A stretch of 64,000 nucleotides of DNA from Methanomassiliicoccaceae archaeon (GTDB taxonomy: Archaea > Thermoplasmatota > Thermoplasmata > Methanomassiliicoccales > UBA472), in contig CAWDXN010000005.1 in the NCBI GenBank assembly GCA_963806355.1, positions 57,980 through 121,979 on the forward strand. Reading direction: 5' to 3'. Under the pieces are notes generated by a model. It searched no databases and was not told the origin of the DNA. It saw only the letters and a list, made by a program, of their open reading frames with translations. Below are positions 15,737 to 46,933 of this stretch, piece after piece. Position 1 is the stretch's first letter; each line of letters opens with the position of its first letter. The position numbers were made by a program, and so were the translations under genes.

Positions 15737-16035
15737 GCCAGGAGAGGGAGGGCGGCTGACGGTAGGGCGCAAGCCCAGCTGAGGAAGTTCCCTCCTCCAT
15801 GAGAAAGGTGGACCGCAGTAGCGGTCTGGTGAGAGCCAAGGCAAGGACGCAGAAACGACACAGCCCCGGGGGCAGGATGATTCGTCTGGCGATGACGTTC
15901 CCGGGGATTTGGTGAAACGGTGACTCCCCACCGGAGCAAGCCCAAACAGCTGGAATGACGATCTCAGGACCGGCGGGTAGGGCGCTTAGTTGAATGCTGC
16001 CTGAAACAGAAGGGGGACTACTACCCTCACCTGGC
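15737..16035 (+). ncRNA. rnpB: RNase P RNA (archaeal)
   Basis: GAGGAAGTTCCCTCC, CAGAAAC, GGTGAAACGG, GAGCAAG, AACAGAAGGGGGACTA; terminal GCCAGG/CCTGGC helix; TTATATA about 25 nt upstream. Confidence 0.93.
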
Positions 16036-34500: not shown

Positions 34501-37276
34501 CCCGGCGGACTGGTCATACTGCGAGAACGGAGAGTACATAAACAACACCGTCGAGGTGTCTGCGTGGGCGTGCACGAAGCGCGTGAGCGACTCCGCCGAA
34601 CACACCTTGATGATCTGGGACCCGATGGACCTGAGGATCAAGCAAGACCTCCGATAAGCCTGATGGAGTTAGGCCTGGCGAGACCATCACCTACACTATA
34701 ACGGTGTGGAACGCTGGCTCTAAGGTGCTGAGCTCCGTCATGATCGTCGATGAGATGCTGAACTTCTGCGAGACCATCGAGTGCCTGATGCCGTGCGACA
34801 GTGAGACCTACACCCTCACCTACACTGTGCCCGAGGACTGGACCTACTGCTGTGACGGGAGTAGGATCGAGAACATGGCTAGTGGCATGGGCCATAGGTT
34901 GCCCGCTGTTGATGCTCGGCTATGACATCGCCTACGACAATGTAGTGCGTCAAGGTCATCGACATCGATGAGAGCATCAGGGTCTGGAAGGAACTGGGTA
35001 CGTCGATGCCAACGACAACTTGCGCGGACGGAGGCACATGCCTGAGATCAACCCAGGTGACAAGCTGGTCTGGCATGTCTTCGTCAAGAACACCGGCAAG
35101 ATCGCACTGAGCTGCATCAACGTCACCGACATCATGACCTCGTGCCAGGGTGGCGAGTGGGTATTGTACGACAAGACCCTGACCTGCTGCCTGGCCCCGT
35201 GTGAGACAGGACTGCTTCGACATCGAATTCACCGTGCCTGAGGAGTGCTGTGGCGACTTCATGCTGACCAACAGCGTCACAGCAACGGCATGGGCGGAGG
35301 ATGTGTTCGTATCCTGGTACTGACAGGAGTGCGTCAATGGTGCAGGGCGACTGCGACATAGAGATAGCGAAGACCCCGCTGAAGGATGTGGTACTGGTCC
35401 GATGAGGTGATAGGGTGGAACATCACCGTCAAGAACGTCGGTGAGAAGAAGCTCTACTGCGTCAACGTGACCGATGACCTCCTGCCGGGTGGATACTGGT
35501 ACATAGCTGAGCTGGCAGTTGGCGTAGCAAAGTATACAAAGATGTGTTCGACAACTCGACGCACATTCCGTGCAACGGAACCGCAACGTGCGTGTACAAC
35601 ACCGCCTCTGTGTCCGCGAAGTGCTGCGCTCGATGGCAACAACGACGACTGCTGCGTTATCACCAAGGAAGCCACTGGAAAGGTCGAGGTTAGGCCAGTA
35701 TACTCACTGGATGTGGATGTCGACATACTATTCAGGTGTCAGAAGTGCATCGAGCAGAACTTTATGGAATGCCGGTGCTGCCCAGAGCCTGGAGATTGTG
35801 TCAAGATCCATGTCAGCGTGACCAACGATGGCAGGGAGACCATATACGGGTATGAGCTCGTTGACACTCTGATGGGTGTCCATGAGTATGTGCTCGCATC
35901 TGCTCCGCTGAAGTCTGGTGAGACCGACGACTTCTGGTATGATTACCAGATCCCGTGCAACTGGACCTACTGCGACGACGGCAAGTACCTTGAGGACTGC
36001 TTCACTGCGATGGCCTGTGAGGTCTGTCCAGTGTACGGCAGGGTTACCATAGTGGACAGCGACTGCGATCATGCAGGGAAGTGTGCGGCCCACAGCTGCT
36101 CATGACCAAGGATGCGTATGTGGATGGCAAGCTGGTTACCGAGGTTATGCCCGGTGATGTCGTGACCTACGAGATCACCGTGAAGAACGTCGGTGAGCAC
36201 TCCGTCTCCTGCATATACATCATGGACACGGTCATGATCGGTATGATGCCGGTATACTTCCAGTCGGACATGATCTGCTGCCTGGCGCCGTGCACCGAGT
36301 ACGTGTGGACCTTCGAGTACACCGTGCCTGAGTGGTTCTGCGAGTGGGGCGACTATCTGTGCGACAAGGCAGTGGCCTTCGGTCTGGTAAACGACATAGG
36401 ATGCTGCTTCGAGATGCAGAAGAAGATGGACTGCGGTTACAACCCGTGGTTCGAACTGGCCTGTGCAGAGAACAAGCTATTCGTGCATAACGAGTTCCAC
36501 CTTGAGGTCATGAAGATCAACAACTTCGGCCTTAGGTGCGCGGAACCCGGCGATATCATCCTGTACGAGATCTGGGTGGCAAACGCCGGTACATGCTCCA
36601 TCACCAACGTCTATGTTGATGACGACATGATCGGGCTGCACGCAAAGATCGACTGCCTGATGCCCTGCATCGACTGCAACCATGAGACCGTAAATGGAAT
36701 GGACTGCCATGCAACATGGCCGTCTTCCGTGGGTCTTACCAGATCCCGAGCGACTGGTCGTATTGCGATGATGGAAACGTCATCGTCAACACGGTCACCG
36801 TGAAGGGCTGGCAGTGTGGCGCGTCTCAGACCGTCAGCGACAGCAACTACGTCTATGTGTCAGACGCTTGCGACGTCCGCATCTATATCGACTACCCGCT
36901 TACCGCCAAGTCTGGCGAGACCGTCACTGTCACCGTAACGGTGAAGAATGAGGGTTCCGGAATGGCTTGCGGTATAAAGGTATGCGATCAGGTGTTGGGC
37001 CTGCACGAGATGATCTGGTGCCTCGCTCCGTGTGAGTCGGTGACCTTCACCAGGCAGGTAGCAATACCCGCCTGTGACGGCGTGACCCACTATGTGAGCG
37101 GGACCACCGAGATCGTCGGATGCTGCTGCGAGTGCTGGGACTGCCCGTGGATGCCGAGCGGCGCCCAAGAACTATCTGTGATGCCGAAGTGCTGCTGCGT
37201 ACACGAGGACGCAGGCTGGAGCATCATGATCGTTTGCGGATGCTGCGGTGGAGTACCGGTACCGGTACCAGTCTAA
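28585..37276 (+). CDS. Giant (about 2,900 aa) cysteine-rich surface protein with more than 20 DUF11-like Ig-fold repeats; broken into many ORFs by indels
   Basis: GGAGG SD, N-terminal hydrophobic segment; recurring i.K.gP....G..i.y.i.v.N.G...l..v.v.D units through all fragments; ends CGCCGGVPVPVPV. Confidence 0.8.
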
Positions 37277-37382: not shown

Positions 37383-38290
37383 TTGAGACGGATGATAGTG
37401 CATGGAGGGGCCTGGGACATACCCAAGGACCTTCACGATGACCATAAGAAGGGTTGCCTGCGCGCCCTTGGGCTGGGACAAGAGCTGCTAGAGTCCGGAG
37501 GTAACGCGATGGACGCAGTGGAAGCGGCAGTGGTCTCGATGGAGGAGGATTGCGTGTTCGATGCAGGATGCGGTTCCTTCCTGAACGAGAAAGGAAAGGT
37601 GGAGATGGACGCCATCATCATGGACGGGCGCACCTTGGCCTTCGGCGCTGTGGCGGCCATCGGCAATGTGAGGCATCCCATCAAGGTGGCGAGGTCGGTC
37701 AAGGAGAGGACCAGGCACTGCATGCTTGTGGGCGAAGGGGCAACCGGGTTCGCTAAGGAGATGGGCTTTGAGATGTTGGAGGACCACTGCTTGGTCTCCG
37801 AGAGGGAGCTTGCAAGATGGAAGGACATTCAACGCATCAAAGGCTTCCACCAGCGAGATGCCTTCAGCGGAAAGGCGCGTCTGCCCCGATGGGGACCGTG
37901 GGTGCGGTCGCGATCGATGATGAGGGCGATATCGCCGTCGCTACCTCCACGGGCGGAACTCCCAACAAGATGTCCGGAAGGGTCGGCGACAGCCCTTTGG
38001 TGGGGTGCGGCACATATGCCGACAATAGTTCAGCGGGCGTGTCCGCGACAGGTTATGGAGAGGCTTTGATGAAAATATGCGTCGCACGAAGGGTATGTCA
38101 GAATATTGAGGCGGGAAGGAACGCCCGGTCGGCAGCCAACGAGGCGATAGCGTTCTTAGAAAGAAGGGTGGGGGGGTATGGAGGTGTGATCCTCATCGAT
38201 AGGATGGGGGAGATATCCTATGCCCACAACACTCCAAGGATGGCGGTGGCCTATACCGATAAGATAGGGCGGATGAGAGCGATCATCTGA
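37383..38290 (+). CDS. Isoaspartyl peptidase / plant-type L-asparaginase (Ntn hydrolase); frameshift near 37875
   Basis: IVHGGAW, VEMDAIIMDG, GTVGAVA, ATSTGG, GRVGDSPLVGCG, SATGYGE. Confidence 0.92.
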
Positions 38291-38371: not shown

Positions 38372-38950
38372 TCACATCGATGCGGTCAAAGGGCGGCCGG
38401 GATGCTGCCCTCCAGTTATCTGCCCTTGCGACATTGCCTCGCCCTGTCCGGATCGCTGGGCTTCCTTGACCGTGCTCTCGTCCAGCTGCATCTTGGGGAA
38501 CACCGCCCATAACCGGTCCAGGTCCTTCTGCTCCAGGGTGAGGGGGTCGATGCCGATGTACATCACCCCACCGTTCACCTTCAGAGCCTGGTTGATCTCC
38601 TCGAGTGTGGCGAGCAATTTGCGCATGTCATTCCAGAGCAGGAGGTATTCCAGACCGTCCAGGAAGAATATCACCTTCCGGTCCTTCGCCTCCAGCTTGA
38701 CCGCCTTCGACAGTGCGGTCAAGGTCTTGGGAGAGATCACGTTGTCCCCTTTGCTTCCGCTGAGCCAGTAGTACTTGGGCGATAAAAGACCGAACTTCTC
38801 CATCACGTACTCTGGATGCAACCGGGTTATGCAGACACCGGGGGTGCCATCGGCGATCATGCTGGCAAAGGAACTGAAACCGAGCCGAGGAAAACCCTCG
38901 ACCAGCATGACCACGTTCATATTGGCATCCTCAGGAGACATAACGTACAC
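38372..38950 (-). CDS. DUF835-like protein, divergent from STAND regulator
   Basis: CITRLHPE, YWLS, ISPKTL, FLDGLEYLLLWND, IDPLTL. Confidence 0.8.
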   Translation of the reverse strand: MYVMSPEDANMNVVMLVEGFPRLGFSSFASMIADGTPGVCITRLHPEYVMEKFGLLSPKYYWLSGSKGDNVISPKTLTALSKAVKLEAKDRKVIFFLDGLEYLLLWNDMRKLLATLEEINQALKVNGGVMYIGIDPLTLEQKDLDRLWAVFPKMQLDESTVKEAQRSGQGEAMSQGQITGGQHPGRPLTASM

Positions 38951-39029
38951 TCTGCTAGCACATACCCTTTCATTTTCGTGATATAAAAACTGATTTTGAG
39001 CATGCTCATTTTGAAATGAGAGTCTATCT

Positions 39030-39043
39030 TATCCTCAAAGATA
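39030..39043. promoter_or_regulatory. TATC-N6-GATA site in divergent promoter of DUF835 gene and STAND regulator
   Basis: TATCCTCAAAGATA; a second palindrome CTCAT-N6-ATGAG at 39005-39020. Confidence 0.5.
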
Positions 39044-39089
39044 ATAATTTGAAGGGAATTATTTTTATTCAAGAAAACAATCTTAGTCC

Positions 39090-41780
39090 GTGAACCGAGC
39101 CGCCCGGAAGTCATTATTGACTGCCCGGGAGAGGGTGCTACTGCACCTACTGTCCTACCAGAGGTACAGTCAGGACGCTGATGCCCCCAAAGCCGTTATT
39201 CAAGAGGGAATAGCGGATGCGGTTGAGGTCGGTCGCAACAATGTCGCCAAGATCTTGAACGAGATGGCCAACGAGCGCATCGTCGATATCCTTTCCAAGC
39301 ATGTCAAGGGCCTTCCGAGCGTCCGCCGGGTCTATTTCCTTTCCACCAAGGGCTTCGATGAGGCCAAGCATCTCAAGGAGGACCTCGAGGCGATGAAGGT
39401 CGAGGTCATCGACCTTAAGGGGGACGTGCACCAGGACGAAGTAGGTCGCCTTTCCGTCTATATGCCCGGCAATTACACCTTCCTGGAAATAATCATGGGC
39501 GTTGCCAGGGGTAAGTTCGATTGCCGATCCTTCCACGAGTCCAAGACCAAAGAGGAGAGGCGTTTCGTTGACTTCACCGACAAAAAGCCGGCGGTCCGAT
39601 CCTTCTTCGGCAGAGAAAAGGAATACCGTCAGCTGATGGACCTGATCAACGGTGAGAGCACCCGGGCCATCATAATCTATGGAATCCCAGGGATCGGGAA
39701 GACCACATTACTGGCGAAGTTCGCCCAAGATGTCCGAGAACAGACCAACGTGTTCTGGCTTAAGATTCACGAATGGGTCAACGTGCGAGGCCTGCTGCGA
39801 CCGCTGGCGGAGTTCCTCTCCCAACTGGGAAAGAAGAACCTGGAATGGTACCTCAATCAGAACGAGACCCCTCACACTGGTGAGGTCTTGCAGATCCTGA
39901 TCACGGACATGGGGGACATCCCGGTCCTGCTCATATTCGACGATGTGCACAAGGGCGAGCGCCTGGTGCTGGATTTCCTCAACGCGCTTATCAACATGAT
40001 CGAGGAGCTGCCCAAGGTCAGGGTGGTCTGCGCCACCAGGGAGGTCCCGGCCTTCTATTCTCGAAGCCTGGTCATCCGGAACCTGATCAGGGAGATGCAG
40101 ATGGAGGGATTGGACAGGGAGAGCAGCCTGAGGATGCTGAGGGCCCGTTCCATGCCCGAGGGCGACATAGAGCAGGTCATCCAGATCACGAAGGGGCATC
40201 CTTTGTTCCTCGAGCTCATCGAGGAGCCTCAATCGGCATTGGGGAAGAACATCCGCATGTTCATCGATCAGGAGGTGGTCTCCAAACTGGATGTGGCGGA
40301 GAAGCGCATCATGAACGTGGCATCGGTGTTCCGTTACCCGGTCATCATGGACGCCTTTTTCATCACCGAGGAGGAGATCCGCAAGGACCTCAACGGAAAG
40401 GAGATCGAGCTCCAGGACATCGATTACACCGTCTCGTATGAGACGGTCGACTCTCTGATTTCCAAATCCATCCTCCATGAGTCCATCGGGCGCATGATAG
40501 GCATGCACGACCTACTTCGTGAGTTCACTTATTCGCGATTGACGCCTAGGCAGAGAATGATCTACCATCGGGCCGCTTCAAAGTTCTATATCCAGGACTC
40601 CTCGCACTCATCCAAGGTGGAGGCTTTGTACCATTGTATCATGGCAAAGGACCTAGAGAAGGCAGTGGAGGTGGCGGCAGGGAGTGGCCAGGAGATCATC
40701 TCCAAGGGATACGCCATGCAATTCGACCCCTTGCTCAGCCGATTGCTGGTGGAGACAAAAGGTCAGGCGAACCGGGACCGAATGGAGCTGCTCATGTTGC
40801 ACGCCCAGATCCTGGAGCTGCATGGTGAGTACGAAAGGGCGGTGGAAGAGCTCGCCGAGATGCTAGAGGACCTGCCTGTCGACAAGGGCTCCCGTCTCAA
40901 GGCCGAGGTGCACAGGAGGCTGGGAGTGCTGGAGATGAAGCGCAACCTGTACGATAGCTCATCTCAACACTTGGCAGATGCGTCCAGCATAGCCAATGAC
41001 ATCCGGGACTCCCAGACCCTGGCGGACATATACTATGACACCGGGGGTTTGCTGGAGCGGCGCGGTAAGTTCGACGAGGCCGTGCAGAACTTCGAGGCGG
41101 CAGGAGACTTCGCTCGGGGCGTAGGGGATAAGATCGCCTTAGGAAGGTCCCTATATGGTCTGGGCAGGGTCAAGGCAAGTTTGTTGGAATACACAGAAGC
41201 GGTGCGATTGAAGAAGGAGGCCCTTAACATCCTCGAGCGCACCGGCGATGTGAACATGACCTCCAAGGTATGCATCGGCATCGGCAATGACATGCGCTCC
41301 ATCAAGCAGGGCGATGAAGGTTTGAAATATCTGGAAAGGGCGGTCGACCTGGCCACCTCGGTTGGCGACATCAACACATTGGCCTATGCGCTATCGAACC
41401 AGGCGGCGGAGTACCTGGCGAGGAACGACCTGGCCAAAGCGGACGAGCTATTGCATGAGGCCACCAAGCTTTTCATCAAGCTCAACGACCAGGTGATGAT
41501 ATCGAACATGCACTTCTATCGTGGCTTCCTCTACAATATGAGAGGCGATTGGGAATGGGCCAAGGAGGAGTTCAAGCTCAGCATTGACACCTTAAGAGGG
41601 TTCGACATACCCTCGAGGTTGGCGCTATGGCTGCTTGAGATCGCCTCGGTCTACATGGAGAACAACGAGAAGGAAGAGGCCATGAAACTTTACGAAGAGG
41701 CCTATTCCGTCGCTTCGCGCATCGGTCACGAGAGGATCATGCGGGATGCAAAGGAAAGCATGGCTAAGATCATGGCCTGA
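39090..41780 (+). CDS. wHTH - STAND NTPase (NB-ARC/MalT-like) - TPR transcriptional regulator
   Basis: N-terminal winged helix (QEGIADAVEVGRNNV...RRVYFLSTKG); FFGREKE, GIPGIGKTT, LIFDDVH, GHPL, MHDLLR; C-terminal TPR-like helical repeats; intact 896-aa ORF. Confidence 0.88.
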   Translation: MNRAARKSLLTARERVLLHLLSYQRYSQDADAPKAVIQEGIADAVEVGRNNVAKILNEMANERIVDILSKHVKGLPSVRRVYFLSTKGFDEAKHLKEDLEAMKVEVIDLKGDVHQDEVGRLSVYMPGNYTFLEIIMGVARGKFDCRSFHESKTKEERRFVDFTDKKPAVRSFFGREKEYRQLMDLINGESTRAIIIYGIPGIGKTTLLAKFAQDVREQTNVFWLKIHEWVNVRGLLRPLAEFLSQLGKKNLEWYLNQNETPHTGEVLQILITDMGDIPVLLIFDDVHKGERLVLDFLNALINMIEELPKVRVVCATREVPAFYSRSLVIRNLIREMQMEGLDRESSLRMLRARSMPEGDIEQVIQITKGHPLFLELIEEPQSALGKNIRMFIDQEVVSKLDVAEKRIMNVASVFRYPVIMDAFFITEEEIRKDLNGKEIELQDIDYTVSYETVDSLISKSILHESIGRMIGMHDLLREFTYSRLTPRQRMIYHRAASKFYIQDSSHSSKVEALYHCIMAKDLEKAVEVAAGSGQEIISKGYAMQFDPLLSRLLVETKGQANRDRMELLMLHAQILELHGEYERAVEELAEMLEDLPVDKGSRLKAEVHRRLGVLEMKRNLYDSSSQHLADASSIANDIRDSQTLADIYYDTGGLLERRGKFDEAVQNFEAAGDFARGVGDKIALGRSLYGLGRVKASLLEYTEAVRLKKEALNILERTGDVNMTSKVCIGIGNDMRSIKQGDEGLKYLERAVDLATSVGDINTLAYALSNQAAEYLARNDLAKADELLHEATKLFIKLNDQVMISNMHFYRGFLYNMRGDWEWAKEEFKLSIDTLRGFDIPSRLALWLLEIASVYMENNEKEEAMKLYEEAYSVASRIGHERIMRDAKESMAKIMA

Positions 41781-41843
41781 TCTTTTTTATAAAAAATAAG
41801 TAAGGCGTTTGAAAACAGTTTGGGAAGGAAAGATCTGCAACCC

Positions 41844-42260
41844 TTAGTGGGGATCCACGCCAGGGATCACATGCGGGTCGACACCGGGGATGACGTGTGG
41901 GTCAACACCAGGGATCACATGCGGGTCCACGCCAGGAATCACATGTGGGTCTACGCCCGGGATGGCATGCGGATCCACGCCAGGGATCACATGAGGGTCC
42001 ACGCCAGGTATCACATGTGGATCGACACCGGGGATGACGTGTGGGTCAACACCAGGGATCACATGCGGGTCTACGCCAGGAATAGCATGCGGATCGACAC
42101 CGGGGATGACGTGTGGGTCAACACCAGGGATCACATGCGGGTCCACGCCCGGGATGGCAAGGGCTGCCACACCTAGGAAGGAGCCCACCATCACAAGGCA
42201 CGCAAGCACGGCGACTACGCCGATCAATACGGCCATGATTTTCTTTGTTGCCTTCTGCAT
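41844..42260 (-). CDS. Secreted tandem-repeat peptide precursor: signal peptide + 13 x [V/A]IPGVDPH
   Basis: GGTGA SD before ATG 42260; basic n-region, hydrophobic h-region, A-L-A cleavage motif; repeat variation almost all synonymous in this frame. Confidence 0.88.
   Translation of the reverse strand: MQKATKKIMAVLIGVVAVLACLVMVGSFLGVAALAIPGVDPHVIPGVDPHVIPGVDPHAIPGVDPHVIPGVDPHVIPGVDPHVIPGVDPHVIPGVDPHAIPGVDPHVIPGVDPHVIPGVDPHVIPGVDPHVIPGVDPH
41847..42158 (-). repeat. 13 x 24-bp coding tandem repeat
   Basis: 312 nt = 13 exact-length units; third-position variation only, apart from V/A at one position. Confidence 0.95.
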
Positions 42261-42297
42261 CAACTTCACCTGCACCAAATTATTATGCAAACCTGTT

Positions 42298-42478
42298 TAT
42301 CATTGTTGATATTAAAAGCGTCTTTGAGCATGCTACACTAAACATTAAATATCAGTAATGATAAAAATCTTTCTATATTATTGAATGTTTATAATCTGTG
42401 ATAACGTGTCCAGATTTGAATGATTTATCAGATTTGATAATTAATAGTATTTATATTGAAATACTATCCGAATCGATA
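42298..42478. promoter_or_regulatory. Cluster of five TATC-N6-GATA-type palindromes upstream of the peptide gene
   Basis: 42298 TATCATTGTTGATA, 42350 TATCAGTAATGATA, 42390 TATAATCTGTGATA (1 mismatch), 42426 TATCAGATTTGATA, 42465 TATCCGAATCGATA. Confidence 0.75.
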
Positions 42479-42532: not shown

Positions 42533-43224
42533 ATGAGTGAAAGAAGGGAAGGACTGACGAAGCTCGGGATCGTGTTCGATCTAGACGGGACCTTGATCGA
42601 AAGCACTATCGACTTCGGGCTCATGAGAGATCGTGTCTTCAGATATCTGATCGATATTGGTTTGGGATACGTTCTGGAGCGATCGGACACTATCGCCAAC
42701 AACATGGACCGGGTGCGGCAAGAGATCCGCGATATGAATCTAGACCTCAAGACCGTCGAGACGAGCGTCGAGGCCATCTGCGTCGAGGTGGAGATGATGT
42801 CCGTGGATTACACGAAGGAAGTGCCTGGGGCAGGCGATGCATTGAGAACGCTTCGCGTCATGGGGATATCCGCTGGCATTGTTGACCCGAGGGTCCCGGA
42901 ATTATGCCACGCATGCTCTTCGCGCATCAAATCTTACAGGATTGCTGGACGCCATCATCTGCCGGGACGACTACGACCGTCTCAGAGGCGAAACCTCACC
43001 CGGAGGCCATGCGCCGGGCCGCCGCCGCCCTGAACCTGCGACCGGAGCAATGCATCTTGGTCGGGGATCATTTGATGGACCTGGAATGTGCCCTTTCGGC
43101 CGGCTCGATGTTCGTGGCGGTCCTGAGCGGACATAATGGTCGGAAGGGTTGGGAGGATCTGGGTGTGGAAAGGATGATCCCATCCATCGCCCAACTGCCG
43201 AGATATCTCGAGGAGATGACATGA
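42533..43224 (+). CDS. HAD-superfamily hydrolase (phosphoglycolate phosphatase-like); frameshifted
   Basis: VFDLDGTL, TR, KPHPE, VGDHLMD. Confidence 0.88.
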
Positions 43225-43276
43225 GGAACGTCTTCACTCCACCAACTATATCCCACTGACGTGGGATTCGGGAACC

Positions 43277-43657
43277 ATGAGGTCCATTGTAAAGAGCGAG
43301 GATGCGCCGGAACCGATCGGTCCCTATTCCCAGGCCGTCATCTCGGACCAACTGGTGTTCTGCTCAGGCCAGTTAGGTGTCGACCCTCGAACTGGAAGGA
43401 TGGTCGATGGCGGGACTGCCGCGGAGGCCCGACGTTGCCTCGAAAACCTCAAGGCCATACTGGAGCAGGCGGGGACAGACCTCACGAAAGTGCTGCGATG
43501 CACCATCTTCATGACCGACCTGATGGACTTCCAGGCCTTGAACTCGGTCTATGCGGAGTTCTTCTCGGCGTCGCCACCTGCCAGGACCACCGTTCAAGTG
43601 GCGGCGTTGCCCAGAGGGGCTAAGGTGGAGATCGATGCGATCGCGTCCCTGACCTGA
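43277..43657 (+). CDS. ridA: RidA/YjgF/UK114 enamine deaminase
   Basis: APEPIGPYSQA, SGQLG, PPARTTVQVAALP, VEIDAIA. Confidence 0.93.
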   Translation: MRSIVKSEDAPEPIGPYSQAVISDQLVFCSGQLGVDPRTGRMVDGGTAAEARRCLENLKAILEQAGTDLTKVLRCTIFMTDLMDFQALNSVYAEFFSASPPARTTVQVAALPRGAKVEIDAIASLT

Positions 43658-44272
43658 TCAGGCCTTGGCATTCACAGAATCGGCCTTGATGCCGTCGTAC
43701 TTGACCTCGAATCCCTTTTGGCAGACGGGACAACAGACGTAATACTCGCGGTCGTCCTTCTTGACCTTGTAAGCGTTGTCGTGGATCTCCTTCTTACAGT
43801 AGTTGCAGGTCAGCACCACAGAGGACTCTGGGGTGACGGTGGCCCTCTGGTTCTCCTTGACCACGGTGACGATGTTCGCAATGTCGAACTCGATGATCTC
43901 ATGGATGTCGGCCATCTTGGAAAGGAAATCGTTGATGAGGTGCTGGTGGTGGAAGGTGCACATGAGCATCAGCTTGCCGCTGCTGAGCATGAATATCTGC
44001 CTCACGCTCTCGTTCTCCTGGAACTGCTCCGCCACCTTCTTGATGTCAACTGGCTTGGTCTTGATGCTCAGGACAACGCTGATCCCTCCCAGTTTCTCTG
44101 GGTCGAGGGTGGCGGTGTAACCCTTTATGATGCCCATGTTCTCCATCGAGCCGACCTTGCTGCTGACCGTGGGAACGCTGACCTTCACCCTGTCCGCGAT
44201 CTGACGGAAGGATAGGCGACCGTTCTCCTGAAGGACCTTCAGGATCCTAACGTCGGTATTGTCCAGTTTCAT
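43658..44272 (-). CDS. Lrp/AsnC-type HTH regulator with C-terminal TRASH domain (archaeal CopR/CopT-like)
   Basis: LDNTDVRILKVLQENGRLSF HTH; CNYC...YYVCCPVC; divergent from copA. Confidence 0.88.
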   Translation of the reverse strand: MKLDNTDVRILKVLQENGRLSFRQIADRVKVSVPTVSSKVGSMENMGIIKGYTATLDPEKLGGISVVLSIKTKPVDIKKVAEQFQENESVRQIFMLSSGKLMLMCTFHHQHLINDFLSKMADIHEIIEFDIANIVTVVKENQRATVTPESSVVLTCNYCKKEIHDNAYKVKKDDREYYVCCPVCQKGFEVKYDGIKADSVNAKA

Positions 44273-44429
44273 ATGGAAAAGGGGAATTAAACAATCATTA
44301 ATAAAGATATCCGTTAAACGAACAAACTAGTCGAGGTTAACATGACGTTAAGAATGCAAAATACTCGTAACTATTCTTTGCATTCGTTGATAGACATGTA
44401 GATGAACCAAGAGCATGGATGTGGTGTAG

Positions 44430-46933
44430 ATGAGCGACGCAAAGGACGGAGGGTCCGACCGACCGAAACTGGAGTCCAAAGGAAAGAGGACGGCAAGCTT
44501 CGGGGTCACCGGTATGACCTGTGCCACCTGTGCTCAGACCATCACTGAATCGCTGCAGGGATTGGAGGGGGTGGAAGGGGCGAGCGTCAACCTTGCCACC
44601 GAGAAGGCCACTGTGGTCTACGACCCTGAGAAGGTGACCATGGAGAAAATGGCCTCCGCCATAGACCAGGCTGGATATGGGGTCATAGTTAACCAGGTCA
44701 CCATCGCCGTCGGGGGCATGACCTGCTCCTCCTGCGTTCTTTCTGTGGAGGAATCCTTGCTATCATTACCTGGCGTTCTTTCCGCCTCTGTGAACCTTGC
44801 CACCGAGAAGGTGACGGTGAGGTACGATCCACAGCAGGTACGCCTCCCTCAGATCAAGCAGGCCATCAAGGACGCTGGATACGATGTGCTCGAGGCGCAG
44901 ACGGTGGATGCGGAGAAGGAGCTTCGGGCTGAGGAGACGGCCCGCCAGAAACGATTGCTGGTCTTCGCTTGGACGCTCGCATTGCCGGTATTCGTCATAA
45001 TGATGCTGATGACGTTCACCACATTGGGCGATGAGCCCTTCCTGATGGACTATGGCAATTACATCCTGTTCCTGCTCACCACGCCGATCCAGTTCGTCGC
45101 CGGTTACCGATTCTACATCGGCGGTTACAAATCCTTGCGCAATGGCGTGGCCAACATGGACGTGCTGGTGGCGGTGGGCACCTCAGCGGCCTATTTCTAT
45201 TCGGTGGCAGTGACGTTCTTTCCCGACGCCTTCCCCTTCACATGATGTCTACTATGACAGCGCCGCCCTCATCATCGCGATAGTGCTGTTAGGCAAGTAC
45301 ATCGAGGCCAGGGCCAAGTCCCGCACCTCCGATTCCATACGAAAGCTGATCGACCTGCAGGCCAAGAGCGCCACCATAGTGCGTGAAGGCAAGGAGGTGA
45401 CCGTTCCTGTGGATGAGCTGGATGTCAATGATGTCATGGTCGTCCGACCGGGGGAGAAGGTCCCCACCGATGGCGTGGTGATCGAGGGCGAATCGGAGGT
45501 GGATGAGTCCCTGATCACCGGAGAGAGCCTGCCAGTGCACAAGGGGGAGGGCTCATCTGTGGTGGGAGGTTCCATCAACAGCAATGGATTGCTCAAGGTC
45601 AGGGCCACCCGGGTGGGGGCCGACACCGCTCTGGCCCAGATCATCCGTCTCGTGGAGGAGGCCCAGGTGTCCAAGGCCCCCATCCAACGCATGGCCGATC
45701 GGGTGGCCTCGGTCTTCGTGCCCATCGTCATCACCATCGCTGTCTCTGCCTTCCTCTTCTGGTACTTTTTTGGGGCCTCGTATTACGGGGTGGACCAGGT
45801 CTTCCCGTTCTCATTGTCGGTGTTCATCGCCGTGCTGGTCATCGCCTGCCCCTGCGCCCTTGGCCTGGCCACACCGACCGCCATCATGGTAGGGACGGGA
45901 AAGGGCGCGGAACTGGGCATATTGATCAAGAACGGGCAGGCATTGGAGATAGCCGGTAAGGTCGGGGTCATGGTCTTCGACAAGACCGGTACCTTGACCC
46001 AGGGCAGACTTGAGGTGACCGATATCGTTGCCATCGGAATCGCCGAGGAGGATCTGCTGCGAACCGCTGGTGCGGCCGAGAAAGGGTCGGAGCATCCCAT
46101 CGCCAAGGCCATCGTCAGGAAGGCCGAGGAGAATGTCCGAACTGCCGGAGGTGGGTCAGTTCGAGAACGTGCCTGGCAAAGGCATTTCGGCCCATATCGA
46201 GGGCAGGTGGGTACTGGTAGGGTCGAGGAGGATCATGCAGGATAACTCGGTGGACCTTGCTCCGGTCGAATCGCACATCGCTCGCTTGGAAGACCTTGGA
46301 CGGACCACTCTGGTGGTGGCCCAGGAAGGAGTGGCGGTCGGTGTGCTCGGGGTCTCGGATGTGGTGAAGGATTCCGCCCTGGTGGCGTTGAACGAGCTGA
46401 AGCGCATGGGGATCGAGGTGGTCATGATGACCGGCGACAACCGGCGGACCGCTGACGTCATCGCCAAGCAGCTCGGCATAGACCGAGTGCTGGCCGAGGT
46501 GCTTCCCGGTCAGAAGGCGGAGCAGGTGGCCGCCCTTCAGAAGGAAGGCAAGGTGGTGGCCATGGTCGGGGACGGGGTCAACGACGCCCCTGCCCTGGCC
46601 CAGGCCGACCTTGGCATCGCGGTGGGCTCTGGCACCGATGTGGCCATAGAGACCGGGGACATCGTCCTGATAAGGAACGACCTGAGGGACGTCGTGGCAG
46701 CGATCCAGCTGAGCGCAAGGACCTCAGTGAAGATCCGGCAGAACCTGTTCTGGGCCTTCGCTTTCAACACCATCGGGATACCGGTGGCCGCAGGTATTCT
46801 ATATCCCAGTTTTCAATTGTTGTTACCGCCCGCGCTGGCGGCAGGGGCGATGGCTCTGAGCTCAGTCACCGTCGTCACCAACGCCGCTCTGTTGCGGACG
46901 TATGTGCCTGAGATCATCAGGGAGAGGGAGTGA
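44430..46933 (+). CDS. copA: Cu(+)-translocating P1B-type ATPase; frameshifts near 45240 and 46135
   Basis: GMTCATC and GMTCSSC metal-binding domains, TGES, CPCALG, DKTGT, SEHP, GDGVNDAP, MALSS. Confidence 0.95.

Follow-up and report, generated by a model that had tools for sequence, protein, structure and literature searches.

The module described here lies on contig CAWDXN010000005.1 of a Methanomassiliicoccaceae archaeon (assembly GCA_963806355.1; 1.72 Mb in 12 contigs), within a stretch of 64,000 nucleotides (nt) that was analyzed as a whole and is called the window below; coordinates refer to the window unless a contig is named. It consists of a stand-alone DUF835 gene, a divergent gene for a regulator of the class of signal transduction ATPases that have numerous domains (STAND) and, convergent with the latter, a gene for a small precursor built of tandem peptide repeats. 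The STAND protein is read here, tentatively, as a transcription factor of the PH0952 type, with a winged helix-turn-helix (wHTH), a nucleotide-binding oligomerization domain (NOD) and a tetratricopeptide repeat (TPR) sensor, that likely binds the operator (G)TAGCATGCTCAA and is switched on by a short peptide from the neighboring multi-copy precursor; the chances of this reading as a whole are put slightly below even. That the locus forms a genuine regulatory module, both conserved and specific, is not in doubt, and it is a strong candidate, the best at present, for peptide signaling in archaea.

Organization of the locus

The DUF835 gene (38372-38950, minus strand; 192 amino acids, aa) matches Pfam PF05763 with an E-value of 1.8e-20 and 73.5 bits (cut-off 33.1) over profile positions 12-132 of 136. 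An intergenic region of 139 nt separates it from the STAND gene (39090-41780, plus strand), which was assigned by Pfam domains and motifs and encodes 896 aa with no internal stops. The STAND stop ends at 41780 and the stop codon of the precursor gene occupies 41844-41846, which leaves a spacer of 63 nt (41781-41843) between the two convergent genes. The open reading frame (ORF) of the precursor was listed at 41844-42290 (minus strand); its likely start is the ATG at 42260, which is preceded by GGTG, giving a gene of 138 aa plus stop at 41844-42260. Both minus-strand genes are preceded by an operator and a TATA box, located by pattern search: operator 1 (TGAGCATGCTCAA at 38996-39008, TTTTATA at 38982-38988; together 38982-39008, minus strand) belongs to DUF835, and operator 2 (GTAGCATGCTCAA at 42324-42336, TTTAATA at 42310-42316; together 42310-42336, minus strand) to the precursor gene. 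An initial annotation of the sequence had proposed these three genes, a distance of 63 nt from the STAND stop to that of the repeat-peptide gene and a palindrome common to two promoters. The genes and the distance agree with the coordinates, and the palindrome, AGCATGCTCAA, occurs twice in the window (38996-39006 and 42324-42334, both minus strand), a count that none of 100 shuffles of the window reached (mean 0.04).

The repeat-peptide precursor

The predicted precursor begins with a lysine-rich stretch, MQKATKK, continues with a hydrophobic stretch ending in AALA and then consists of 13 tandem units IPGVDPH[V/A] (41847-42155, minus strand; identified by translation and by the program TRF), the last of which ends the protein at DPH. 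At the nucleotide level the array has a period of 24, 12.6 copies and 76% matches. Variation falls on third codon positions (8 of 8), with none of the eight first positions and one of the eight second positions varying, and the differences among the 13 copies comprise 276 synonymous versus 20 non-synonymous changes; in no other reading frame of the array is a constant unit kept. Near-identity of the protein in spite of 76% DNA likeness, together with this synonymous variation, therefore indicates that every copy is held by purifying selection at the peptide level.

The locus was compared with 61 related genomes and with a wider set of 261 genomes of the order, 174 of them in the family labeled f7. 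Orthologous loci were read in 39 cases, in three of which the contig stops just past the STAND gene, so that 36 were assessable; a convergent precursor gene, which the initial annotation had proposed to look for beside homologous regulators, is present in 35 of these. The number of cores ranges from one (locus L020) through two (L016-L018, L027) to 13. The sole conserved part of the precursor is the core I-P-x-x-[D/S]-P-H, which varies as IPGTDPH, IPFIDPH, IPFLDPH, IPGIDPH, IPVSDPH, IPHIDPH, IPGNSPH, IPGNDPH, IPVLDPH and IPLIDPH. The residue before the core is constant within each precursor, first copy included, and variable spacers of 5-32 residues lie between the cores in several genera. The precursor ends exactly at the core (PH) in 24 of 35 cases. 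A basic N-terminus and a hydrophobic segment are found in the precursors of every genus except the one labeled g4, which is taken up below.

Judged from these predicted products, the layout is that of a multi-copy pro-peptide and not of a structural repeat protein. An elastin-like structural protein, a possibility prompted by the strings IPGVD and LPGVG, was rejected in view of the precursors with one or two copies and the variable spacers. The multi-copy secreted peptide of the initial annotation is upheld as far as the repeats are concerned (13 units under selection), and its secretion is predicted in part, from a leader that is absent in g4. A protein-database search with the precursor returned two proteins only; with next to no annotated members, the family has a distribution that such databases do not reveal.

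The same architecture of a leader, a repeated invariant core in 1-13 copies and variable intervening segments could belong to a precursor of ribosomally synthesized and post-translationally modified peptides (RiPPs), whose core would be cut out and modified, for example cyclized or cut after proline, by enzymes encoded elsewhere, with the STAND protein as the regulator of the pathway. The prolines fixed at core positions 2 and 6 are compatible with such processing, and regulators of secondary metabolism with STAND and TPR parts exist (AfsR, matched by the orthologue profile at E 7.2e-10). This origin is nonetheless considered highly improbable: ORF listing and Pfam scans of selected neighbors in the 1.5-2.5 kb flanks of the 39 orthologous loci gave no protease, cyclase, radical-SAM or transporter gene, unlinked enzymes being possible, and the neighbors in these flanks are DUF835, HAD hydrolase, RidA and asparaginase-family genes. 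Moreover, the cassette is single-copy, vertically inherited and syntenic, whereas biosynthetic clusters are usually patchy.

The STAND regulator

In the preferred reading the peptide would act on the STAND protein, which matches Pfam AAA_16, ATPase_2 and NB-ARC above their cut-offs, TPR_12 with E 1.1e-19 and, below the cut-off of that family, TPR_MalT with E 8.5e-11. Residues 1-101 (39090-39392, plus strand) were assigned to the wHTH effector domain from a structural model and Foldseek comparison. The model of the N-terminal 170 aa (predicted local distance difference test, pLDDT, 88.8) is a winged helix with AF1382, MepR/MarR and the PadR-type AspA as best matches (probability 1.00, E from 8.5e-4), and the recognition helix contains GRNNV. 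Residues ~170-480 (39597-40529, plus strand) make up the NOD, with its nucleotide-binding, helical and winged-helix domains, as seen from Pfam and motifs: Walker A (GIPGIGKTT, G198-T206), Walker B (D284-D285), GxP (G369-H370-P371) and MHD (M472-H473-D474) are all invariant in the columns of an alignment of 15 orthologues. The arm and TPR sensor, residues 481-896 plus the stop codon (40530-41780, plus strand), were modeled with 21 helices at pLDDT 92.8. The gene has a GTG start that is kept in 36 of 36 loci where the start was located (of 39 loci, three gave no motif-search result). Pfam, invariant motifs and models agree in this way with the intact protein of winged helix, NB-ARC-like NTPase with GxP and MHD motifs, and TPR sensor that had been described at the outset.

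With NOD, sensor and effector all present, the protein is a member of the PH0952/MalT-like group of STAND proteins with a TPR sensor. The orthologue profile matches PH0952 (6mfv) with E 9.2e-44 over residues 166-419 and also RapF (E 8.6e-10), besides AfsR; with the NCBIfam MalT equivalog it reaches 18 bits, where the cut-off is 537. The fold of the modeled sensor was compared by VIA-align, which gave Z values of 31 for APC5, 30.7 for RapF with PhrF (352 of 372 residues aligned), 30.6 for the Rap protein of phage phi3T with its pheromone, 30.5 for APPBP2 with a C-terminal degron (root mean square deviation 3.0), 29.6 for RapJ with CSF, 26.4 for MalT domain III (1hz4), 25-26 for NprR (26.2) and 22 for AimR. 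The model is thus as close to the peptide-bound Rap/NprR receptors as to MalT domain III. Because high Z values are common for helical repeats, the modeled fold points to a peptide-receptor-like superhelix and to no more than that.

An antiviral role was considered as well. PADLOC gave only a generic TPR match (5.1e-12) and STAND_TPR at 2e-4, and the protein does not qualify as an Avs-type defense protein because its effector is a wHTH and its gene is single-copy and syntenic across the order.

Several relatives of the regulator were encountered. In the same genome, a 462-aa protein (L002; C4:92152-93540, minus strand) has a winged helix 36% identical to STAND residues 7-107, weak sub-threshold TPR matches and no NTPase match, an architecture of two parts that on paper resembles the RRNPP regulators; a wHTH match of this type occurs in nearly all searched genomes of the order, including those that have no STAND module. 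A paralogous wHTH-STAND-TPR gene of ~940 aa (24-28% identity) was found at six loci (L058-L063), in all six divergent from a gene for a signal-peptide protein; four of the loci show this gene in full, with a product of ~500 aa. Outside the order, a DUF835-like ORF, judged by eye, is divergent from the STAND homologue at L064, a hydrophobic ORF of 44 aa is convergent with it at L066, and at L074 and L077 a distant homologue (26% identity) adjoins a convergent 147-aa ORF with a signal peptide and an acidic D/G-rich tail.

Conservation of the cassette and its operator

Of the 61 related genomes, 39 have one copy of a STAND orthologue (45-99% identity); in the wider set the orthologue occurs in 63 of 261 genomes, with 0 of 174 in family f7. 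The gene order asparaginase - DUF835 - STAND - peptide - HAD - RidA - Lrp/TRASH - CopA is syntenic across the order, and the spacing between the convergent stops is 9-106 nt in most orthologous loci. The cassette of DUF835, STAND and precursor genes is a conserved unit across Methanomassiliicoccales. The module also seems to be present in the cultured methanogen Methanomassiliicoccus luminyensis: one protein of genome G311 is identical to a protein that a public source assigns to this species, and the genome has both operators and a precursor with six copies of (T)IPLIDPH.

The element (G)TAGCATGCTCAA is common to the DUF835 and precursor promoters, where it lies on the coding strand and precedes the TATA box by 9 nt, taking AGCATGCTC as the reference; operator 1 is at the same time ~85-95 nt upstream of the STAND start. 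It is found at the same place in the orthologous loci, most of which have 68-80 nt between operator and ATG. A search with the composite pattern AGCATGCTC-N9-TTWWATA returned exactly two exact matches in the whole assembly (C5:96961-96985 and C5:100289-100313), namely the DUF835 and precursor promoters. The pattern matched in 40 of the 61 genomes and the reversed pattern, used as control, in none.

Extra copies of the operator occur in several genera, and in 12 of 17 such loci that were fetched the operator is joined to a conserved leader and a gene for an AAA_18 P-loop kinase, which we take to be Fap7/AK6-like. The leader consists of GGGGAAGG..CC..GGGG, a variable hairpin and a T-run; Rfam gave no family at E up to 0.1 for nine of these third-operator loci, and RNAalifold gave the leader -3.09 kcal/mol with one compensatory pair and no convincing covariation. 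In the genome of the window a near-match operator precedes the kinase unit at C1:24041 (unit C1:23359-24041, minus strand; loci with a third operator, L041-L053 and L057). In a single genome, an operator lies upstream of an archaellin gene (L046, G044:C14:313-1035; Arch_flagellin, E 3.1e-30), which hints at motility in the regulon of that genome. Control of adhesins, which the initial annotation had inferred, was not borne out: the window holds two operator copies, neither upstream of its DUF11/DUF7507 genes. These genes encode cysteine-rich surface proteins, lie at 34879-37276 and upstream to ~31000, and have no operator nearby.

The STAND protein is the sole DNA-binding protein encoded in the cassette and is, on sequence grounds, the likely ligand of the operator. 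Alternatively, the genes could be neighbors by inherited synteny only, another factor reading the operator and the STAND protein having unrelated targets. The whole stretch from asparaginase to CopA is indeed syntenic across the order, and genome G038 keeps DUF835 and the operator with an epimerase gene in place of the STAND and precursor genes. We give this alternative very little credence, since the operator and the STAND gene occur together. Two or three operators per genome are found in 37 of the 39 STAND-bearing genomes versus 3 of the 22 others; among the exceptions to these counts, G039 has its precursor gene at a contig end and G033 is a genome 64% complete. In four STAND-less genomes the kinase gene has neither operator nor leader (in a fifth the gene was not located). 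Where the STAND gene is split in G008, the precursor gene, the DUF835 genes and the operator are all gone, and in G032 a split STAND gene goes with a degenerate peptide gene. In G021, which has the STAND gene, the two operators are altered at their center in a like manner (GCAATC and GCAAGC). From the distribution of the operator, its exceptions and the kinase units it is therefore concluded that the operator marks out a small regulon whose inheritance and loss go along with those of the STAND gene.

Covariation of sensor and cores

No part of the STAND protein evolves faster than the TPR sensor: mean pairwise identity is 0.435 over residues 540-896, whereas the NOD has 0.591 and the wHTH 0.557. 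In genus g2, some pairs with IPFIDPH versus IPFLDPH cores are 91-93% identical over residues 1-560 and 57-61% identical over the sensor; in the DNA, the final ~1040 nt of the gene are 53-70% identical, against 76-91% upstream of this dip and 72-84% downstream. The two trees disagree: that of the sensor places three IPFIDPH rows (support 96/93) apart from seven IPFLDPH rows (92/95), and in that of residues 1-560 the IPFIDPH rows are nested with four IPFLDPH rows (98/99). In approximately unbiased (AU) tests, an IPFLDPH clade is rejected by the N-terminal data (p-AU 4.5e-5), and the grouping found in the N-terminal tree is in turn rejected by those of the sensor (p-AU 0.012).

A further comparison took 110 close pairs among 44 non-identical receptors and corrected sensor identity for NOD identity. 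The residual sensor identity is 0.122 higher for pairs that share a core, a value reached in 0 of 2000 shuffles of the core labels within clades. Sensor and cores behave as one variable cassette in a conserved frame, as in bacterial pherotype loci. The check for covariation of receptor and peptide that the initial annotation had suggested found it in one genus, where the sensor follows the core in trees and AU tests.

DUF835, candidate importer and RNA coverage

DUF835 is listed, in the treatment of archaeal response regulators given in PMC5847659, as an inactivated-KaiC (iKaiC) output domain of these proteins. The family is greatly expanded in these archaea: the STAND-bearing genomes searched have 5-13 copies each, as do most of the related genomes searched, where DUF835 is often the C-terminal domain of proteins of 330 or ~1400 aa. 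No DUF835 was found in the five genomes of genus g14, which are also devoid of the STAND module.

The initial annotation had noted no evident importer or maturation protease in the window. One gene for an SBP_bac_5 protein, the binding protein of Opp/Dpp-type transporters, is present elsewhere in the genome, and such genes occur in 39 of the 39 STAND-bearing genomes searched.

RNA evidence comes from assembled contigs (90-100% alike) in four metatranscriptome runs from three studies, chosen for holding the stretch. They cover DUF835 at 38431-38945 and similar spans in four of four runs and the precursor gene at 41929-42269 in three of four, with short pieces only on the STAND gene. Over 20 kb the cover is uneven, concentrated on the genes for DUF11-type surface proteins, DUF835 and the precursor; the DUF11/DUF7507 genes are the most heavily covered part in the four runs, with a summed contig depth of up to 142. 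Such uneven cover fits RNA better than carry-over of DNA, yet it proves neither transcription, nor strand, nor level, and for the uncovered genes (STAND, asparaginase, HAD) it is no evidence of silence.

A proposed model of peptide signaling

By analogy with MalT, PH0952 (PMC6468293) and the RRNPP systems, we infer the following mechanism from export onward. The precursor would be exported through its N-terminal leader and cut into octapeptides x-I-P-x-x-[D/S]-P-H, which would re-enter the cell, perhaps via an Opp-type ABC importer, and bind the concave face of the TPR sensor. Binding would free the protein from autoinhibition by arm and sensor, as in MalT and PH0952, ADP would be swapped for ATP and the STAND protein would multimerize, so that its wHTH domains could occupy the operator just upstream of the transcription factor B recognition element and TATA box (BRE/TATA). 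The genes activated would be the peptide gene itself, in a positive feedback, the DUF835/iKaiC signaling gene and, in most genera, the AAA_18 kinase unit.

The main alternative holds that the peptide is an output of the regulon and not its ligand: the STAND protein would sense some other small molecule and drive DUF835 together with a secreted or membrane-anchored repeat product, such as an antagonistic peptide, an adhesive or metal-binding array of His/Asp/Pro motifs or a surface decoration. A shared operator shows co-regulation only, and in the part of PMC6468293 that treats them the inducers of MalT-type STAND proteins are small metabolites. Each unit offers one His and one Asp, and genes for a TRASH-domain regulator and a CopA ATPase lie two to three genes away in conserved synteny. 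In addition, the divergence of the sensor far exceeds the change in the cores, and physical linkage alone could give the covariation of the two. On the other hand, a structural or polyvalent role is unlikely in view of the precursors with one copy (L020) or two (L016-L018, L027), and it is just the unit of 7-8 residues that is conserved, even across long variable spacers, with the protein ending exactly at a core in 24 of 35 precursors. The g4 precursors that have no export leader still keep repeats beside the sensor gene, and the sensor fold is like that of peptide-bound TPR receptors. On balance a role as output appears rather unlikely.

Reception of the peptide by the STAND protein remains the preferred reading, and a number of observations weigh against it. 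Genus g4 (seven genomes; L009-L014, L039) has a leader, MKVKSTVNYHNVRSRGKN, that is short and hydrophilic and contains no hydrophobic segment, and units of the form (N)MPLPGVGP[H/Y/V/W] with the different core LPGVGP[H/Y/V/W]. A secreted signal is therefore not universal; these predicted products suggest another export route or, in g4, an intracellular interplay of peptide and receptor. Neither a repeat-peptide gene nor the operator was found at the six loci of the paralogous STAND genes (24-28% identity), and no IPxxDPH gene at 14 loci of STAND homologues outside the order (26-33% identity). Besides G038, with its operator and no STAND gene, G001 and G003, of the same genus as the window, have a STAND gene split near residue 680 and a peptide gene intact or nearly so, sequencing error being possible. 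SBP_bac_5 genes also occur in the STAND-less genera g5 and g7, and the RNA contigs show neither strand, nor transcript ends, nor expression level.

The covariation itself calls for caution in the same sense. The AU tests were run after the trees had been inspected, and the pattern rests on few independent events. Sensors are 57-61% identical where the core differs by I to L alone, those of the IPFLDPH group are mutually just 57-72% identical, and at L111 a G-to-S change in the core goes with a sensor identity of 90%. A single recombination tract would move repeats and sensor without any functional tie, because the core-coding repeats lie tens of nt from the sensor-coding end of the convergent STAND gene.

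What was observed at the locus is thus confirmed, and its interpretation is partly supported. Of the analogous, STAND-based system put forward by the initial annotation, the conserved cassette, the shared operator, the layout of the precursor and the covariation speak for it; the control of adhesins was dropped. In its boldest form, the reading would make the module the earliest known case of a peptide pheromone in archaea, and of a STAND-ATPase receptor for one anywhere, in which the re-imported octapeptide x-IPxx[D/S]PH would bind the TPR sensor and trigger ATP-dependent multimerization on GTAGCATGCTCAA operators, auto-induction of the peptide gene and a switch of the DUF835 protein and the AAA_18 kinase unit, with sensor and cores forming a recombining, pherotype-like cassette; this version is considered possible and distinctly doubtful.

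Very little is known of cell-to-cell signaling in archaea. According to a passage of a 2025 paper on the subject, true quorum sensing in archaea amounts to three cases, all without a peptide signal, and just one of the three has a known signal, a carboxylated acyl-homoserine lactone (AHL) (PMC12240190). The initial annotation knew of no described archaeal equivalent, in agreement with the literature search made here, which covered Methanomassiliicoccales, RRNPP, DUF835 and archaeal quorum sensing and found no published archaeal peptide-receptor system. If the preferred reading is true, the module would be the first known peptide signaling system in archaea, its peptide would give the STAND regulators of the PH0952 clade a first candidate for an inducer, and its receptor would be a natural peptide-gated form of the NOD switch, the module that underlies immune receptors of the nucleotide-binding leucine-rich repeat (NLR) type. 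With candidates for both signal and receptor, and with an operator and three target promoters in hand, the question of peptide signaling is directly testable.

Neighboring genes

Downstream of the module (42533-45245, and likewise at L055) lie genes for a HAD hydrolase, RidA (PF01042), a regulator of the Lrp/AsnC type that ends in a TRASH domain and an ATPase of the CopA type that contains heavy-metal-associated repeats, whose order after the module is kept across the order Methanomassiliicoccales. On the other side, the asparaginase-family gene (PF01112; 37383-38290, plus strand) is represented by two overlapping ORFs (37383-38069 and 37817-38290) that cover profile positions 3-152 and 172-300. 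This indicates a frameshift, due either to a pseudogene or to an assembly error; in the relative G003 the ORF runs on past the point where the frame changes in the window. An archaeal RNase P RNA (RF00373, 215.5 bits) is located at 15740-16032 (plus strand).

Comparison with known systems

PH0952 of Pyrococcus horikoshii (6mfv), an archaeal STAND protein of solved structure, has the same succession of N-terminal winged-helix effector, NOD, arm and TPR sensor. In the sections of PMC6468293 devoted to them, PH0952 figures as a predicted transcription factor whose N-terminal domain is ArsR-like and whose sensor is made of TPRs, and both PH0952 and MalT as inducer-triggered STAND transcription factors with a TPR sensor. 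No inducer, operator or target genes are given for PH0952 in those sections, whereas the module described here offers a gene for a candidate inducer, together with an operator and three target promoters. The sensor of PH0952 superposes poorly on the modeled one (Foldseek TMq 0.38).

MalT of Escherichia coli is an inducer-triggered STAND protein with a TPR-like sensor, in which an ADP/ATP switch leads to multimerization and activation; for the protein of the module these steps are supposed by analogy. The DNA-binding domain of MalT is C-terminal and of the LuxR type, unlike the N-terminal wHTH of the STAND protein. Its inducer is maltotriose, where the module has a gene-encoded peptide as candidate.

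In the RRNPP systems (Rap/Phr, NprR/NprX, PlcR/PapR, AimR/AimP), as in the module, the gene of a cytoplasmic TPR receptor adjoins a small one that encodes an exported pro-peptide whose C-terminal end is the signal, export and signal being predictions in the present case. Some phr genes hold several peptide copies. The receptor is not an RRNPP protein, because a complete NOD (~310 residues) stands between wHTH and TPR in place of the two-part build of that family, the helix-turn-helix is winged and not of the Xre type, and it comes from an archaeon; the module is set further apart by its tandem cores, up to 13 in number, by the convergent genes and by one genus that has no export leader. DUF835 is shared with archaeal signaling proteins, of which it is an output domain, and differs in the module by standing alone under the operator. 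On paper, and by analogy, the module nevertheless works like an RRNPP system.

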